Virus record (IMG/VR): IMGVR_UViG_2526164631_000038
Source of the DNA: a virus
Taxonomy: Duplodnaviria > Heunggongvirae > Uroviricota > Caudoviricetes
DNA: 43,688 bases
Strand: one strand, 5' to 3'
The notes under the pieces were generated by a model that was given only the letters and a program-made list of their open reading frames with translations, searched no databases and was not told the origin of the DNA. Position 1 is the first letter of the stretch. The number at the start of each line of letters is the position of its first letter. Positions 4,216 to 43,278 of this stretch are shown here, in pieces. The translations under genes were made by a program, and so were the position numbers.

Positions 4216-4895
4216 CAGAGTAATACTCCCCATGCTCCTACATCAAAACCACTGATGAATTCGTTATCCATATCAAAACCAAAAAATTTTGAGCCTTCCG
4301 ATGGGGTTTCCACCGAAGGAGTTTCAATGCCCCCCGCCCATACCCCGGCGGCTTTTACTGTGAGATACCCCTGTTTAATTGCCGCAATTAACTCACGCGA
4401 TACATCTGAAATATCAGTATCAGGAAAGACCCAGACCGATATCGTCATGTCCTGGTTATCGACTATCTGCATTCGCAGCCCGGATCCTGCTGTTGCCGCG
4501 TCAAGAATTGCCGGAAGCGAATCATTCCGTCCGTCCCAGTTATTAATCGCAATCTTCGCTTTAAGGATGACACGATAAGTTTCATCGCTGAGGTACATGT
4601 ATCCGGAATCAGGATCGTATGGTCCCTGCCATACACCCTGATCATATCCAAGCCCGTCGGTATCCCAGCTGAAATAAACACCTGAGATAGGCTGGCTGAC
4701 AACACGGCTACGTCCGATCCACAATCCCAGAATGTCAAGTTGCACACCAACCGCAGAGTCAATATCAAATGCAGTAATCAGCCCTCTGGTGGCCGCCGCA
4801 ACATCAATAAGCGGCCGGGTCATCAGATCAACATGTGCAAGAAATTTAGGTTTGGTGGCGTGGTAGTTCGTGATTAGTTCGGTGTATTTGCTCAT
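4215..4895 (-). CDS. baseplate protein (Mu gp48-like)
   Basis: 226-aa ORF between the baseplate J-like gene and the fibre gene, translationally coupled; position and size fit Mu gp48. Confidence 0.55.
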
Positions 4896-6091
4896 GACTC
4901 CACCGTTATAACGATATTTTCCGGGGTACAGGACGCAGATTCGTTGTATCTGATATCAATGTTTGATGACGACAAAGCCCCCGGAGATTTCCCAATCGTC
5001 AGTTCCTGAATATCGTAATAGCGTGCATTCCCGCCACTCACCACGCCAAGATTCGCCGGTGAGTAAATGCGACTTAAAAGGACCGAATCACCAATCATCA
5101 GACTATTGATATAGTCGGAAATAGCCTGCTGGATCTGCTGCCCTATCTGTGAGGTATAACCCGTAAAAACTTTTAATTTAATCCGGGCATAAACAGGCAC
5201 ATCACTGGAACGCGAGAATTTGATTACATGGGGATTGCCGTATTTATCCGGAACCGTAACGGATGTTGTACCGTGAGTGGCTGTCCCCTGGCCTTTATTC
5301 CCTCTGATAGCCTGAGCAATATCCATCACATCACCGCCATCCACAATTACAGCAACAGAGTGTGGCGGTAACCCGTTACCGTCCTCCGAACCAGTATCGT
5401 TTTCATAGAGTTTGTGGCGGGTTACACCGGTAACATTAGAAACAGCACCATCCAGTGCTTCAAATGGGGTTATTGATGGCAACGCAACACTTTGCGACTG
5501 GCGGATACGTAACTCCGCATCAGTTTCTGCCGGAGAGCCAACAGTAGCCGCAGCAGGATTAGTTACCGAAACCCAGCCACGGGTTGGCGTATTAATTTCA
5601 GTGATAGTTCCAGCCAGCGCCGCCACTGCACCACTGACGGAACATGTTGCGGTCGCCATCACTGTACCATCCACGCCGACCACCACTGAAGCAGGCAAAC
5701 GCCATATCACACTATTACTGTCTTTCACGCTGCCATTAATGATGGTTGTTCCGGCAGTTCCTGTAAGAAGCAAATCAACCGTAGAATTCGTCGCGCCTTT
5801 ACGTGAAATACCATTTATTTTCACGTTACTGGTCAGTGCGGCCCCATAGCCGGTTGCCGGTGAAAAACAGTTGTAGACAGTTATCGCAGTATTATTGGCA
5901 TCATGAATCGCCAGCGCCATCAGAGCCACCATCTGGCCGTCTTTACTATCCGGTTCGAGGTAGGCATCACTGCCATAAATCTGCTGAAAATAGCTAATCA
6001 GGGTGCTGAGTATCGTCTGATAATCAGGCGCACTGATCCCCTCCGCGGTTACCTTTGCAGATAAACCGAGAGAATCAAGGTTCAGAGCCAT
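4892..6091 (-). CDS. baseplate J-like protein (Mu gp47 / P2 gpJ family)
   Basis: 399-aa ORF with an N-terminus characteristic of Baseplate_J proteins as recalled; in conserved baseplate gene order. Confidence 0.7.
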   Translation of the reverse strand: MALNLDSLGLSAKVTAEGISAPDYQTILSTLISYFQQIYGSDAYLEPDSKDGQMVALMALAIHDANNTAITVYNCFSPATGYGAALTSNVKINGISRKGATNSTVDLLLTGTAGTTIINGSVKDSNSVIWRLPASVVVGVDGTVMATATCSVSGAVAALAGTITEINTPTRGWVSVTNPAAATVGSPAETDAELRIRQSQSVALPSITPFEALDGAVSNVTGVTRHKLYENDTGSEDGNGLPPHSVAVIVDGGDVMDIAQAIRGNKGQGTATHGTTSVTVPDKYGNPHVIKFSRSSDVPVYARIKLKVFTGYTSQIGQQIQQAISDYINSLMIGDSVLLSRIYSPANLGVVSGGNARYYDIQELTIGKSPGALSSSNIDIRYNESASCTPENIVITVES

Positions 6092-27905: not shown

Positions 27906-28061
27906 TTACTTCTCAGATTCGTAGTCCACGAAGACAGCAACCTCCGTCTGGCCGGTTCGGATTCGTACCTCGCAGAGGTCTTTCCTCGTTACCAGTGCCG
28001 TCACTATGACGGTTAAACAGATGACGATAAGGGCGATTAACATCGCCTTTTGCTGCTTCAT
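27906..28061 (-). CDS. hok: Hok/Gef-family membrane toxin
   Basis: 51 aa MKQQKAMLIALIVICLTVIVTALVTRKDLCEVRIRTGQTEVAVFVDYESEK, nearly identical to HokD/RelF as recalled. Confidence 0.85.
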   Translation of the reverse strand: MKQQKAMLIALIVICLTVIVTALVTRKDLCEVRIRTGQTEVAVFVDYESEK

Positions 28062-28618
28062 AGCCTGCTTCTCCTTGCCTTTCGGCACGTAAGAGGCTAA
28101 CCTACATTTGTGAGACATAGATTGGGCCTCAGATTAATGTTAAGCGTCTTGTAGGACGCGTAATGTTAACTGGGGCTTTTCTCTATCTGCCTTTTGGTGT
28201 TCATGCCTGAGGCAGATAGCCTCAAGCACCCGCAGCAATTCTAACTATCCAATAGATCAATGCCAACTTCTTTTCCTGCAACATCTCTCATCATAAGTGA
28301 CCAAAATTCATCCAATCAGCACAAAAGAAACATTTAAAGCGTGAATGCTACCGAACGTTCATTTCAATTACATCGTTTTGATTTTTAACAGTTTTTACCT
28401 CAACAAATCAAATGGCATTAGCATTCATCATGGAAGAAAGACTGATAAAAATGATCATTTTCAATGACTTATGATCACACCGGGTATTGCCAAGTCATTC
28501 CTTTTACGCCAGGATACCCACAAGTGAGTAGTCGAGGAGAGTTTGCCAATTTTTGCGATATAAATTTCAATGTCCGAAGAACCATTAATTGTTAATTGAT
28601 TCTGTATAAGGTATTAAC

Positions 28619-29716
28619 ATGACAATTTCATATATTCCTATTCTGAAAGCGAAACGTTCTGAGTTATCAGCTTTATCGCAGCTATCCATTGAAAAGAAAT
28701 CAAAAATTTTGCCATTACTCGAAATTGAACCAGTGCCAATTGACCCTGATTCAGGTATTGCCTTAAAGAGTTATAACGAGACTCTTATAGAGTTCGGAAA
28801 GAAAGTCTCAAAATCTTGCTCAGATATGCAAGGTGTTTATATTGATGGATTATTAATTGAAGAGCATTTTATTTCTCCTGAAGATCATTACCCTATAATA
28901 AATGCGGTTAATCAAGTTAGAGATATGGGGATAAGAGTTATTCCTGTCAGTTCACCAACTCGCCCATCTAACTATAAAGGAGCGATTGATGAATTAATGC
29001 AGAATGAAATATGCTTGAGATTAACCACGTTAGATCTGGTTAACCCACAATTAATAACGCATTACATTAATCATCTGGGAATTCCTTTATCAAATATTGA
29101 TATAATTATTGACTTAAGAGATGAGTTAACCGAGGATAAACTTAATTCCGGCGAACTATATACTTTGGCAATGGGATTGATAAACAATCTGGCGCACCTC
29201 AATGAATACAGAAAAGTGATTCTTTCTGGGGGTTCATTTCCTACAGATCTCAGTGATATTTCTGTTGGTCTATATTCTCAACCTCGAATCGAGTGGATTT
29301 TATGGCAGAGTTTAATGAATAGAAAAGAACTTGCCAGAAATGTGATTTATAGTGATTATGGAGTACAGCACCCCGACTTTAATAGGCTTTCGACGCGATT
29401 CCCTAGCGTATCTGCCAGCGTCAGATACTCTGGAGATAATGACTTTTGGGTATTTCGAGGAAGAGTAGCTAATCGCTTTGGTTATGAACAATATGGTAAA
29501 CATAGTGAGGATATTCTTGCTCATCGAGAATATTCAGGGCCTACATTCTGTGCGGGAGATAGAGACATAGAATATTATGCAAACGAGTATCAAGCCTACA
29601 AAGCCAATCCCTCTGGTAACTATAAATTTGGTAGCCCAGAGGTATGGCGTAGGATTGGGCAAAACCATCACATAACTAAGGTTGTTGAGCAACTCGCCAC
29701 TCTTTACGGGCTTTAA
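28619..29716 (+). CDS. uncharacterised 365-aa protein, Beta-protein / sce7725-like; first gene of a candidate defence pair
   Basis: Translation MTISYIPILKAKRSELSAL... recalled as the N-terminal signature of the Beta_protein / sce7725 family (recalled, uncertain); AT-rich; 500-bp leader; 3' end overlaps the convergent partner. Confidence 0.75.
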   Translation: MTISYIPILKAKRSELSALSQLSIEKKSKILPLLEIEPVPIDPDSGIALKSYNETLIEFGKKVSKSCSDMQGVYIDGLLIEEHFISPEDHYPIINAVNQVRDMGIRVIPVSSPTRPSNYKGAIDELMQNEICLRLTTLDLVNPQLITHYINHLGIPLSNIDIIIDLRDELTEDKLNSGELYTLAMGLINNLAHLNEYRKVILSGGSFPTDLSDISVGLYSQPRIEWILWQSLMNRKELARNVIYSDYGVQHPDFNRLSTRFPSVSASVRYSGDNDFWVFRGRVANRFGYEQYGKHSEDILAHREYSGPTFCAGDRDIEYYANEYQAYKANPSGNYKFGSPEVWRRIGQNHHITKVVEQLATLYGL

Positions 29717-30254
29717 GTTTAACTCGAACAGCTTCACGAAGCTCGCCAACATCCATACTATTGGCGAGTTTTGACCATAAGACGCGTTTAGGTTTATTTT
29801 TCAAATTCTGTAGCTCCCCTACATCACTTAATAGGGAAAGCAATTCATCTTTCCAAAGAAGCATTGTTAAGGAAAGTTTGTCCACTTGTGGATTCAACTT
29901 GCTAGTTCGAATTGTTTTTAAATGGATACCTTGCCGTGCACCTTGCGTAACTTGCTTTATCCCCCACCATGATGGAACTATGCTTAAAGCATCATAAAGA
30001 TGGCAATCAGAGACAACCAACGTTACTTTATCCATCACTGATGAGTAATGTTGCACCTGCGCTGGTAATCTGAGCAAGTTATCACTTTTGCTCTTCAACT
30101 CATAACCATGTATAAGCCCATTGATCACTGCTATATCAGCTCTGCTAGCCCCCAGATTCATCGTAAACTCATCAATGATTAGGGTGTCAGGATCTTTATG
30201 ATGATCTCTCAAAATCTTGGCATGCACAGCCTTTCTTACATCAATGTCTCTCAT
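29676..30254 (-). CDS. uncharacterised 192-aa protein, sce7726-like with PD-(D/E)xK-like motif; second gene of the candidate defence pair
   Basis: LIIDEFTMNLGASRADIAVINGLIHGYELKSKSD has the D...(D/E)xK arrangement of restriction-endonuclease-fold nucleases; convergent with and overlapping the Beta-like gene. Confidence 0.75.
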   Translation of the reverse strand: MRDIDVRKAVHAKILRDHHKDPDTLIIDEFTMNLGASRADIAVINGLIHGYELKSKSDNLLRLPAQVQHYSSVMDKVTLVVSDCHLYDALSIVPSWWGIKQVTQGARQGIHLKTIRTSKLNPQVDKLSLTMLLWKDELLSLLSDVGELQNLKNKPKRVLWSKLANSMDVGELREAVRVKLKARKEWRVAQQP

Positions 30255-30525
30255 ACCATAGTTGCGCTTTCATCGACTCTCTCAAGCCATGATTCTATAT
30301 CATGGTTCGCATGAATGCCATTTGATATGACCAGTGGTTAAACATTGCACAGAAAAGTGGATGTGTATTTTAACAAAAGCAATGACGGCTAACCATGTTG
30401 GTATGTCGATAAAATGTTTCAACGTAAGCATTATCTGTTCCGCCCTTTCGGGCGGCCTCCTGATGTTCTGAGGGTGCAGAAATCCCTCCGGTTAAGGATT
30501 AAATTTTTAACAGTGCTAAATTTAA

Positions 30526-30882
30526 TTATTCAGTTCTGGATTTTGTCACCCTGCGTATCCGTGCTTTCGCATTACGCTCAATCTGAATTAGCTTTTCTAT
30601 ATTTTTTCGCCTTTCCTGTTCCTCCTGGCGCAATAGTTTTACATCATCTGCCAGTCTGGTTTCTCTTTTCGCCACAGAGAGCATCCAGTCAAATGGCTCC
30701 ACAACTGCACCGCAGATTTTACAGCGGACCTGACGCTCTTTTTCGTCAACCCGGACAGAAGCGTGATGGCAGTATGGTCTTTCCGATGGCTCATAAAGAA
30801 AATTAACCTGATTACGTGGGTCATCCTCTTTTACCGGAAATAAAACAATATTACTTAACTCATCTTCTGGTTTTATTTCCAT
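30526..30882 (-). CDS. hypothetical protein with zinc-ribbon-like Cys/His cluster
   Basis: 118 aa from MEIKPEDE (AGGAGAGGAG Shine-Dalgarno); PYCHHASVRVDEKERQVRCKICGAV; basic coiled-coil C-terminus. Confidence 0.55.
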   Translation of the reverse strand: MEIKPEDELSNIVLFPVKEDDPRNQVNFLYEPSERPYCHHASVRVDEKERQVRCKICGAVVEPFDWMLSVAKRETRLADDVKLLRQEEQERRKNIEKLIQIERNAKARIRRVTKSRTE

Positions 30883-35642: not shown

Positions 35643-36037
35643 CGGAATACCTTATTACTGGTTGTGTGAGAACTCCAGTATACCACCGAGCCTGAAGTGG
35701 TAAAAAGACAGGCGCACAACACGAAGGCGCATTTCCGGTATTCATAAAGAGTCGGTCTTGTCTGTTAAATTTAAATGGTGGGAGTGCGCCTCCGGTTGTA
35801 AATAACGACATTGCTATGTGTAGTCTTTGGCGGCATCAGTTCTACTCCGTGGCTGCCCTGTCGCCCCTTTTTAAAGTGAATTTTGTGATGCGGTGAATGC
35901 GGCTAAGCGCACGCGGCACAGTTAAAAGCATCAGTGTTATGGGTGGATTATCCGGCGTTAATTGTTAACTGGTTAACGTCACCTGGAGGCACCAGGCACC
36001 GCATCGACAAAATTCATTTGTAAAAATGGAGATAATT

Positions 36038-41149: not shown

Positions 41150-41344
41150 ATGCGGTATGAAAAAGTCAAACCATGTCCGTTTTGTGGTTGTCCATCAGTA
41201 ACGGTGAAAGCCATTTCAGGATATTACCGCGCAAAGTGTAACGGATGCGAATCCCGAACCGGCTATAGTGGAAGTGAAAAAGAAGCACTCGAAAGATGGA
41301 ATAAACGAACTACTGGAAATAATAATGGAGGTGTTCATGTATAA
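41150..41344 (+). CDS. lar: Lar-family restriction alleviation protein
   Basis: 64 aa from MRYEKVKPCPFCGCP...CNGCESR, a zinc-ribbon of the Lar/RalR type; Rac-like position. Confidence 0.65.
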   Translation: MRYEKVKPCPFCGCPSVTVKAISGYYRAKCNGCESRTGYSGSEKEALERWNKRTTGNNNGGVHV

Positions 41345-41525
41345 AATTACTGCCACTATTGAAAAGGAAGGTGGCACTCCTACTAACTGGACAAGATATT
41401 CAAAATCTAAATTAACGAAATCAGAATGCGAAAAAATGCTCTCAGGGAAAAAAGAAGCAGGCGTTTCCAGAGAGCAGAAAGTAAAGCTGATAAATTTTAA
41501 TTGCGAGAAACTTCTGTCCTCGTGA
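41337..41525 (+). CDS. small hypothetical protein (62 aa)
   Basis: ATG preceded by GGAGG; between lar and xis. Confidence 0.4.
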   Translation: MYKITATIEKEGGTPTNWTRYSKSKLTKSECEKMLSGKKEAGVSREQKVKLINFNCEKLLSS

Positions 41526-43075: not shown

Positions 43076-43086
43076 TAAATACAATT

Positions 43087-43188
43087 AAAAAAGACCGAAT
43101 ACGATTCCTGTATTCGGTCCAGGGAAATGGCTCTTGGGAGAGAGCCGTGCGCTAAAAGTTGGCATTAATGCAGGCTTAGTTGCCTTGC
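43087..43188 (-). ncRNA. sdsR: SdsR (RyeB) small RNA
   Basis: Minus-strand sequence GCAAGGCAACTAAGCCTGCATTAATGCCAACTTTTAGCGCACGGCTCTCTCCCAAGAGCCATTTCCCTGGACCGAATACAGGAATCGTATTCGGTCTTTTTT matches SdsR as recalled, including the terminator hairpin; CTATTCT -10 just upstream. Confidence 0.85.
43093..43117. repeat. attR: right copy of the attachment-site repeat, forming the present 3' end of sdsR
   Basis: GACCGAATACGATTCCTGTATTCG matches the attL copy at 1075..1098 with two mismatches. Confidence 0.75.
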
Positions 43189-43278
43189 CCTTTAAGAATA
43201 GATGACGACGCCAGGTTTTCCAGTTTGCGTGCAAAATGGTCAATAAAAAGCGTGGTGGTCATCAGCTGAAATGTTAAA

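Follow-up and report, generated by a model that had tools for sequence, protein, structure and literature searches.

The viral DNA stretch of 43,688 nucleotides recorded as IMGVR_UViG_2526164631_000038 (hereafter the window, meaning the whole stretch that was analysed) carries, within a Rac-like Escherichia coli prophage, a mobile two-gene cassette made up of a beta gene and a convergent cII-like gene. Judged by comparison with its homologues, this cassette is probably a 'core-only' relative, devoid of gop and of toxin genes, of two defence systems, gop-beta-cII of P4 and PD-lambda-2. An earlier reading of the letters of the window (the original prediction) had placed here two convergent open reading frames (ORFs) of 365 and 192 amino acids whose 3' ends overlap by 41 nt, and its coordinates proved to be exact. 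The genes, their overlap and the segment carrying them are as follows.

28619..29716, + strand: beta, 365 amino acids, Beta_protein / PD-Lambda-2_C-like, TIM-barrel fold predicted, start MTISYIPILKAKRSELSAL
29676..30254, - strand: cII-like gene, 192 amino acids, sce7726 / Phage_P4_cII, predicted PD-(D/E)xK core followed by a C-terminal helical domain
29676..29716, no strand assigned: overlap of the convergent 3' ends of beta and cII, 41 nt
28244..30439, 2196 bp: swapped cargo, breakpoints 28243/28244 and 30439/30440 relative to E. coli JJ2434 (locus L015)

Both ORFs are real genes: they have full-length family matches and hundreds of homologues, and the ratio of non-synonymous to synonymous substitution rates (dN/dS) was <=0.13 wherever it could be computed (dN 0.22-0.34, dS saturated; relatives of 61-74% identity). 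By these substitution ratios both genes are under purifying selection.

The product of the first gene had been described as Beta_protein/sce7725-like, and only the first of these names was borne out. In profile searches, Pfam PF14350 (Beta_protein) was matched over its full length (7.7e-52; 177.3 bits against a cut-off of 27), the alignment pairing residues 5-356 of beta with positions 1-341 of the 342 in the profile. The best PADLOC matches were to PD-Lambda-2_C (PDLC03983, 2.8e-41, 140 bits; PDLC03984, 6.8e-38) and were nearly full length, and the P4-derived 'beta' model of PADLOC gave a marginal match (17.8 bits, E 2.8e-4) confined to residues 4-40. With the sce7725 model (NCBIfam NF033831) the protein scored 12.2 bits against a cut-off of 60, over the N-terminal 35 residues only, and none of 36 beta homologues reached the cut-off (best E-value 0.0042). 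Membership in sce7725 was rejected on these scores; all that beta has in common with the model is the N-terminal motif Y-x-P-x-L-K-x-K-x-x-E. The Beta family comprises 2429 cluster representatives (50% identity, E<=1e-3).

The AlphaFold2 model of beta, obtained with 36 sequences, had a predicted local distance difference test score (pLDDT) of 92.2. In it a (beta/alpha)8-like alternation gives way to a beta-hairpin and then to long helices at the C-terminus, and the strand-helix alternation with functional-type residues at the C-terminal strand ends is that of a TIM barrel. Residues K12, E15, D76, R134, D165, R223, D246, R269-Y270 and H351 are invariant or nearly so, a conservation that persisted in an alignment of 50 sequences with a mean identity of 31%. 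In the model most of the invariant residues sit where the barrel strands reach their C-terminal ends, or shortly beyond that point, i.e. at the mouth of the barrel. This placement of invariant charged residues suggests a conserved catalytic or ligand-binding pocket. The pocket is likely to bind nucleic acid or an anionic ligand that bears phosphate.

The second protein had been assigned to sce7726 and, from the segments LIIDEF, ADIAV and GYELKSKSD, to the PD-(D/E)xK nucleases. Both assignments held. NCBIfam NF033832 (sce7726) was matched over its full length (191.1 bits against a cut-off of 70; positions 1-183 of 184), and PADLOC reported a 'cll' match of 2.4e-28. Homologues of the protein are annotated with Pfam PF26915 (Phage_P4_cII); the window protein itself had no match in the Pfam version searched, which does not hold PF26915. 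The model (pLDDT 94) consists of an alpha-beta-beta-beta-alpha-beta core and a C-terminal helical domain, and a structure search with it returned PD-(D/E)xK folds. The acidic residues and the lysine of the D...E-x-K signature lie on the second and third strands of this core, and E29, D40, E52, K54 and Q66 are invariant across 59 homologues. Judged by the model, the cII-like protein adopts the PD-(D/E)xK nuclease fold, and its E-D-ExK site is intact and invariant. The closest stand-alone PD-(D/E)xK nucleases are MmcB-like/SPO1766 (PDB 3dnx), NucS, the Can2 nuclease domain and type II restriction endonucleases. The cII-like protein has no detectable sequence relationship with them and, unlike them, possesses a C-terminal four-helix domain of its own and has a TIM-barrel gene as its obligate partner. 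No relative of solved structure was detectable by sequence for beta or for the cII-like protein.

The original prediction had described the two genes as a recurrent pair, and in a neighbourhood survey their co-occurrence turned out to be near-obligatory. Of the 119 loci surveyed, 95 were reached through cII and 24 through beta. The cII-side set consisted of 79 of 80 viral-contig loci (the one left out had no detectable cII or beta), individually added loci, phage records and the window itself. The beta-side set held distant beta relatives with 27-40% identity to their query; it came from a search with 12 sequences chosen from an alignment of 50 distant betas. Beta was found in 93 of the 95 cII-side loci; it was convergent with cII in all 93, and the 3' ends overlapped in 91 of them, by 11-158 nt. 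Similarly, a convergent cII gene was present in 23 of the 24 beta-side loci, with a 3' overlap in 21 of the 23. One locus without beta (L055) has just 77 bp beyond the cII gene, too short for beta. The convergent, overlapping arrangement is kept across Proteobacteria, Firmicutes, phages of Actinobacteria, and Acidobacteria.

Most of the roughly 25 cII-side lineages with a full-length beta had no gene coupled upstream of it, and the same was true of about 20 of the 24 beta-side loci. Such bare pairs occur in a Dickeya P2-like prophage (beside HicAB, with the same 41-nt overlap), in E. coli lambdoid prophages (between Rz and Nu1), in Paenibacillus, and in Gordonia phages including Powerball (beside HicAB and near the integrase). 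Upstream coupled genes, where present, were specific to the lineage: gop in P4, a PIN-like pair, and HigB with an M78 peptidase. The latter combination was found in four Acidobacteria/soil loci, in which the convergent cII gene overlaps beta by about 155 nt; HigB/ImmA-IrrE pairs also occur without beta-cII. The pairing and the lineage-specific nature of the upstream genes therefore indicate that beta-cII is a conserved two-gene core to which toxin cassettes are optional additions.

The relationship to P4 can be followed gene by gene. In the P4 record (M27748) gop and beta are on the + strand and cII on the - strand, beta and cII thus being convergent as in the window. In BLASTP comparisons the window beta was 23% identical to P4 beta (E 5e-9, nearly full length) and the cII-like protein 28% identical to P4 cII (E 2e-17). 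In both cases the carrier is a temperate element, in which the genes occupy a variable hotspot for accessory genes. They differ in that P4 cII has 264 amino acids and carries a C-terminal extension that the 192-residue protein of the window does not have, and in that P4 beta and cII are separated by a terminator-bearing gap, whereas the window genes overlap by 41 nt. Rousset et al. (2022) showed that the P4 system, named 'Rst_gop_beta_cll' in DefenseFinder/PADLOC, confers protection from lambda and P1 (PMC9122126). Its gop gene is toxic without beta (Ghisotti 1990, as cited by Rousset et al., PMC9122126), and the toxicity of gop-beta-cII is triggered by the phage accessory protein orf184 (bioRxiv 10.1101/2023.04.06.535777).

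The link to PD-lambda-2 is through its component C, the best PADLOC match of the window beta. PD-lambda-2 (Vassallo et al. 2022) consists of the HigB-like A, the toxic HigA-peptidase B, and C, 'related to a P4 phage antitoxin' (PMC9519451). The beta homologue PD-lambda-2C is needed for defence and not for toxin neutralisation, and the reported mode of action is abortive infection (PMC9519451). As published, the system has three genes and no cII; however, in four environmental operons of the PD-lambda-2_B type, all of those examined, a convergent cII gene comes after gene C (beta) and overlaps it, and for one of them (L006) the A, B and C models were all matched. A tblastn search with the B component retrieved no phage records, and from plasmids only distant HigB/ImmA pairs without beta-cII. 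The window has neither A (HigB-like) nor B (HigA-M78 peptidase, the toxic part), and its two proteins matched neither the PD-Lambda-2_A nor the PD-Lambda-2_B model of PADLOC. A tblastn search of the whole 43.7-kb window with gop, HigB, the M78 peptidase and the PIN-like upstream protein was likewise empty, and a hidden third gene was rejected on this basis. Since gop, HigB and the M78 peptidase are absent, the window holds neither system in full and contains only the part common to both. With respect to the sce7725/sce7726 pair (NF033831/NF033832), only the second protein is a clear family member. The module had been put forward as an uncharacterised kind of system. That claim does not stand, as the genes are homologous to the P4 beta-cII pair, and the same pair also ends PD-lambda-2-type operons; both relationships had been missed.

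Some loci of the survey deserve separate mention. At L053 (5001-6810) a cII homologue with 58% identity has no beta despite sufficient room; on the same strand after cII, a kinase fragment (Pkinase, 2.7e-25) and a PP2C phosphatase (3.8e-14) occupy beta's place. In L010 (866-1477) and L011 (3395-3997), proteins of about 200 amino acids with 41% mutual identity stand in the gop position, coupled to beta. They start with M(K/R)LLIDTD and look PIN-like by eye, had no Pfam or PADLOC match, and may represent a third type of toxin add-on. Two stretches, L006 (1-3810) and L010 (5359-6526), are non-prophage and defence-island-like, with a type III restriction-modification pair (ResIII and N6_N4_Mtase) beside one and a TIR-domain protein near the other. 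In L006 a beta ORF of 385 amino acids (4416-5573), overlapping cII by 158 nt, is absent from the public gene call; automated annotation may therefore under-report the pairing where overlaps are long. In Acinetobacter nosocomialis pAC1530 (L100, 3887-4096) a beta-family remnant follows an ImmA/IrrE peptidase gene and is cut off by an IS30 element that directly precedes blaNDM-1. A PD-lambda-2-type operon appears to have been destroyed here as the resistance region was assembled.

The cassette is an accessory gene block of its prophage. It is located between hok/sok and the prophage replication genes, in a region (~28200-30600) with a G+C content of 0.34-0.42 compared with about 0.50 in both flanks, in agreement with the AT-rich insertion that had been described there. 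Alignment with E. coli JJ2434 narrowed the insertion to 28244..30439: where the window carries its 2196-bp cargo between hok and DUF977, this strain shares the flanks but has small unrelated genes that take up 1099 bp, which also bears out the variable accessory slot expected in the original prediction. The hok-beta-cII-DUF977 block was present in only 84 of 5426 complete E. coli genomes, and many others had the hok and DUF977 flanks with different cargo. E. coli FDAARGOS_1059 is 100% identical over a 3.25-kb stretch around the module, and its two genes are named in RefSeq 'beta family protein' (WP_000156212.1) and 'sce7726 family protein' (WP_001204666.1). Phage Rac-SA53 carries the identical two genes, for which the submitter noted 'beta' and 'CII phage-like protein'.

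In Rac-SA53 (L001, 6802-7567) the cII-like start is preceded, at a distance of about 165 bp, by an IS1 insertion whose target duplication is AAACATTT; the corresponding site in the window (~30412-30419) is uninterrupted. A GC-rich hairpin (CCGCCC-TTTC-GGGCGG, ~30437-30456) is located exactly at the right cargo boundary (30440). It was not flagged by the terminator scan because it has no T-run, and may act as an insulator for the backbone or as a landmark of recombination. Four stretches of the window correspond to small regulatory RNAs: the RalA antitoxin RNA of Rac ralR/ralA (41343-41521), DicF (35815-35866), SraC/RyeA with SdsR/RyeB (43083-43226), and hok/sok (28056-28231). The SraC/RyeA and SdsR/RyeB region is probably the chromosomal flank of the prophage. 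In the identical prophage of FDAARGOS_1059 the RefSeq annotation shows a YdaT-family toxin gene beyond the replication genes.

The non-coding parts of the cargo were scanned for expression signals, with the following features.

28244..28618, + strand: module-specific, AT-rich, non-coding leader of beta (left cargo part), ~375 bp
30255..30439, - strand: region upstream of the cII-like gene (right cargo part), promoter-like site at 30321..30292 (ATGGCA-18-TAGAAT)
28404..28419, + strand: 16-nt motif CAAATCAAATGGCATT, inverted repeat I6, with a 15/16 copy at 30314..30329 (- strand)

A non-coding leader of 500 bp had been proposed for beta. About 375 bp of it (28244..28618) are specific to the module; the rest is the hok/sok region, in which the Rfam hok/sok element is matched at 28056-28231, and a hok-promoter-like site is found at 28266..28238. 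The module-specific leader has no ORF of 60 or more amino acids, and its ORFs of 40 and 43 amino acids are without support. It does not appear to be a structured RNA or to belong to a known RNA family: its folding was not significant (z +0.69), Rfam at E<=1 gave only the neighbouring sok element, and its nucleotide sequence was not conserved across the lineages compared. A consensus scan of the leader revealed no sigma-70-like site on the + strand, and no promoter-like site was found for beta. The promoter-like site of cII is about 40 nt upstream of the start, and -10-like hexamers (TAAAGT/TAGAAT) occur about 40 nt before the ATG in several lineages. The window scan found no terminator-like site between beta and cII, so that each transcript should read into the other gene.

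In the window, Shine-Dalgarno/anti-Shine-Dalgarno pairing was -4.0 kcal/mol for beta and -0.1 kcal/mol, i.e. essentially none, for cII. In a comparison of 27 lineages, which are not phylogenetically independent, the medians were -5.9 and -1.5 kcal/mol (Wilcoxon p=0.003). The consensus of the two copies of the 16-nt motif is CA(A/T)ATCAAATGGCATT. They are situated at -215 of beta and -75 of cII in the same orientation relative to each gene, and the - strand copy overlaps the -35-like hexamer of cII. A 15/16 match was reached by none of 60 shuffles. The motif could be a lineage-specific shared operator or due to chance; we did not build on it because no equivalent was found in 16 other lineages.

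There is in our view about an even chance that the bare pair acts as a stand-alone, prophage-borne anti-phage or exclusion module in which the nuclease is the effector and beta its regulator or sensor. The cII-like nuclease would then cut the DNA of the infecting phage, or host DNA in an abortive response, and beta would restrain the nuclease, sense infection through its conserved Arg/Asp pocket, or do both. Convergent transcription through the common 3' end without a terminator would couple the expression of the two genes, and the strong ribosome-binding site on beta, with none on cII, would in this clade keep the nuclease scarce relative to beta. Toxin cassettes located upstream of beta (gop, HigB with the M78 peptidase, PIN-like) would serve as a second effector; the version in the window would rely on the nuclease alone.

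Several points weigh against such a role. The literature search turned up no experiment on a bare beta-cII pair, and no mechanistic or structural work on beta or the cII-like protein. The toxic parts of both validated relatives, gop and the HigA-peptidase, are absent from the window. The PD-lambda-2 clone extends only about 396 bp past gene C, yet it defended; any cII partner may be truncated in this clone. A physical beta/cII interaction and a nuclease activity are postulated, the fold matches of beta were generic (Foldseek template modelling (TM) score <=0.37), and the Shine-Dalgarno asymmetry depends on the clade. P4 cII was reportedly named for a lysogeny (clear-plaque) phenotype.

The pair could instead serve addiction or stabilisation, the cII-like nuclease as toxin and beta as antitoxin keeping the prophage or the cassette in the lineage, with no anti-phage function. 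Beta has indeed been described as the antidote of gop in P4 (PMC9122126) and as 'a P4 phage antitoxin' by Vassallo et al. (PMC9519451); the pair is repeatedly found beside toxin-antitoxin loci (hok/sok in the window, HicAB in Dickeya and in Gordonia phage Powerball), and in this clade the translation signals of beta are strong and those of the nuclease weak. However, a 365-residue TIM barrel with about ten invariant catalytic-type residues is unlike a small labile antitoxin, and PD-lambda-2C is dispensable for toxin neutralisation but required for defence (PMC9519451). Anti-phage phenotypes have been measured for the relatives, and addiction and defence can coexist. Addiction as the sole function seems unlikely. 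Alternatively, beta-cII might be a sensor or regulator that needs a toxin in cis, which would make the window pair an orphan remnant or a controller of hok/sok. The proven toxic parts of the relatives, gop and the HigA-peptidase, are both missing here, and Hok, a small membrane toxin encoded directly upstream of beta on the opposite strand, is a functional analogue of gop with its two transmembrane helices. Against this stand the prevalence of the bare pair, the commonest architecture in the survey (most of ~25 lineages, ~20 of 24 distant loci), its presence in slots without a nearby toxin (Rz/Nu1, Paenibacillus), the intact ORFs with dN/dS <=0.13, the invariant nuclease active site, and the fact that hok/sok is conserved prophage backbone present with or without the cassette. 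We regard this explanation as improbable.

A restriction-modification-like scheme, in which beta would modify DNA or the nucleotide pool as a self mark and the cII-like protein would cut unmarked DNA, is compatible with the conserved, enzyme-like pocket of beta, with the resemblance of the nuclease to restriction endonucleases and with a C-terminal helical domain that might bind DNA. Yet DpdA/TGT folds scored no better than dozens of unrelated TIM barrels, the top matches being metabolic enzymes, and Foldseek TM scores were <=0.37; no transglycosylase or other modification-enzyme similarity appeared in the Pfam, NCBIfam and PADLOC scans, and PD-lambda-2 is reported to act by abortive infection (PMC9519451). 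We give this scheme only a small chance. It is very unlikely that the pair controls lysogeny or development, the nuclease fold binding or processing the element's own DNA. The lysogeny phenotype after which P4 cII was reportedly named points this way, some sources label homologues 'regulatory protein', and in Gordonia phage Powerball the pair is near the integrase, but the same cassette is found at unrelated positions in phage types that are themselves unrelated (Rac-like, lambdoid late region, P2-like, P4, actinophages) and also occurs in non-prophage, defence-island contexts (type III restriction-modification, TIR protein). Moreover, unrelated cargo replaces it in sister prophages, as would fit an accessory gene better than a core developmental one.

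Beyond the reading of the bare pair as a stand-alone anti-phage module, a broader proposal, which we hold only tentatively and consider doubtful, is that beta-cII is the ancestral, self-sufficient core of a large unrecognised defence family, gop-beta-cII and PD-lambda-2 being this core with optional toxins. If that were true, a TIM-barrel enzyme or sensor would control a PD-(D/E)xK nuclease by way of an obligatory convergent overlap, the toxin-antitoxin description of the published systems would miss their main effector, and the window would hold the minimal natural form.

The module is not categorically new, because its genes are named in RefSeq and were noticed by the annotators of Rac-SA53, and because the family occurs within known defence systems. 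What appears to be new with respect to the literature is the near-universal convergent overlap, the fold assignments for beta and cII, and the recognition that P4 gop-beta-cII and PD-lambda-2-type operons share beta-cII as a core that usually stands by itself. The fold assignments are of note because, in a survey of 2024, the P4 genes are still described as 'of unknown function'. Two validated E. coli systems of unknown mechanism have been treated as unrelated three-gene, toxin-antitoxin-like systems, and this locus links both. As gop and the A and B components are absent from it, current PADLOC definitions probably miss the bare core. If the bare pair defends, detection rules need revision, and the two-gene form would be the simplest one for work on the mechanism. 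If it does not, the core would act as a sensor or regulator dependent on an additional toxin, which would be equally informative for both known systems.

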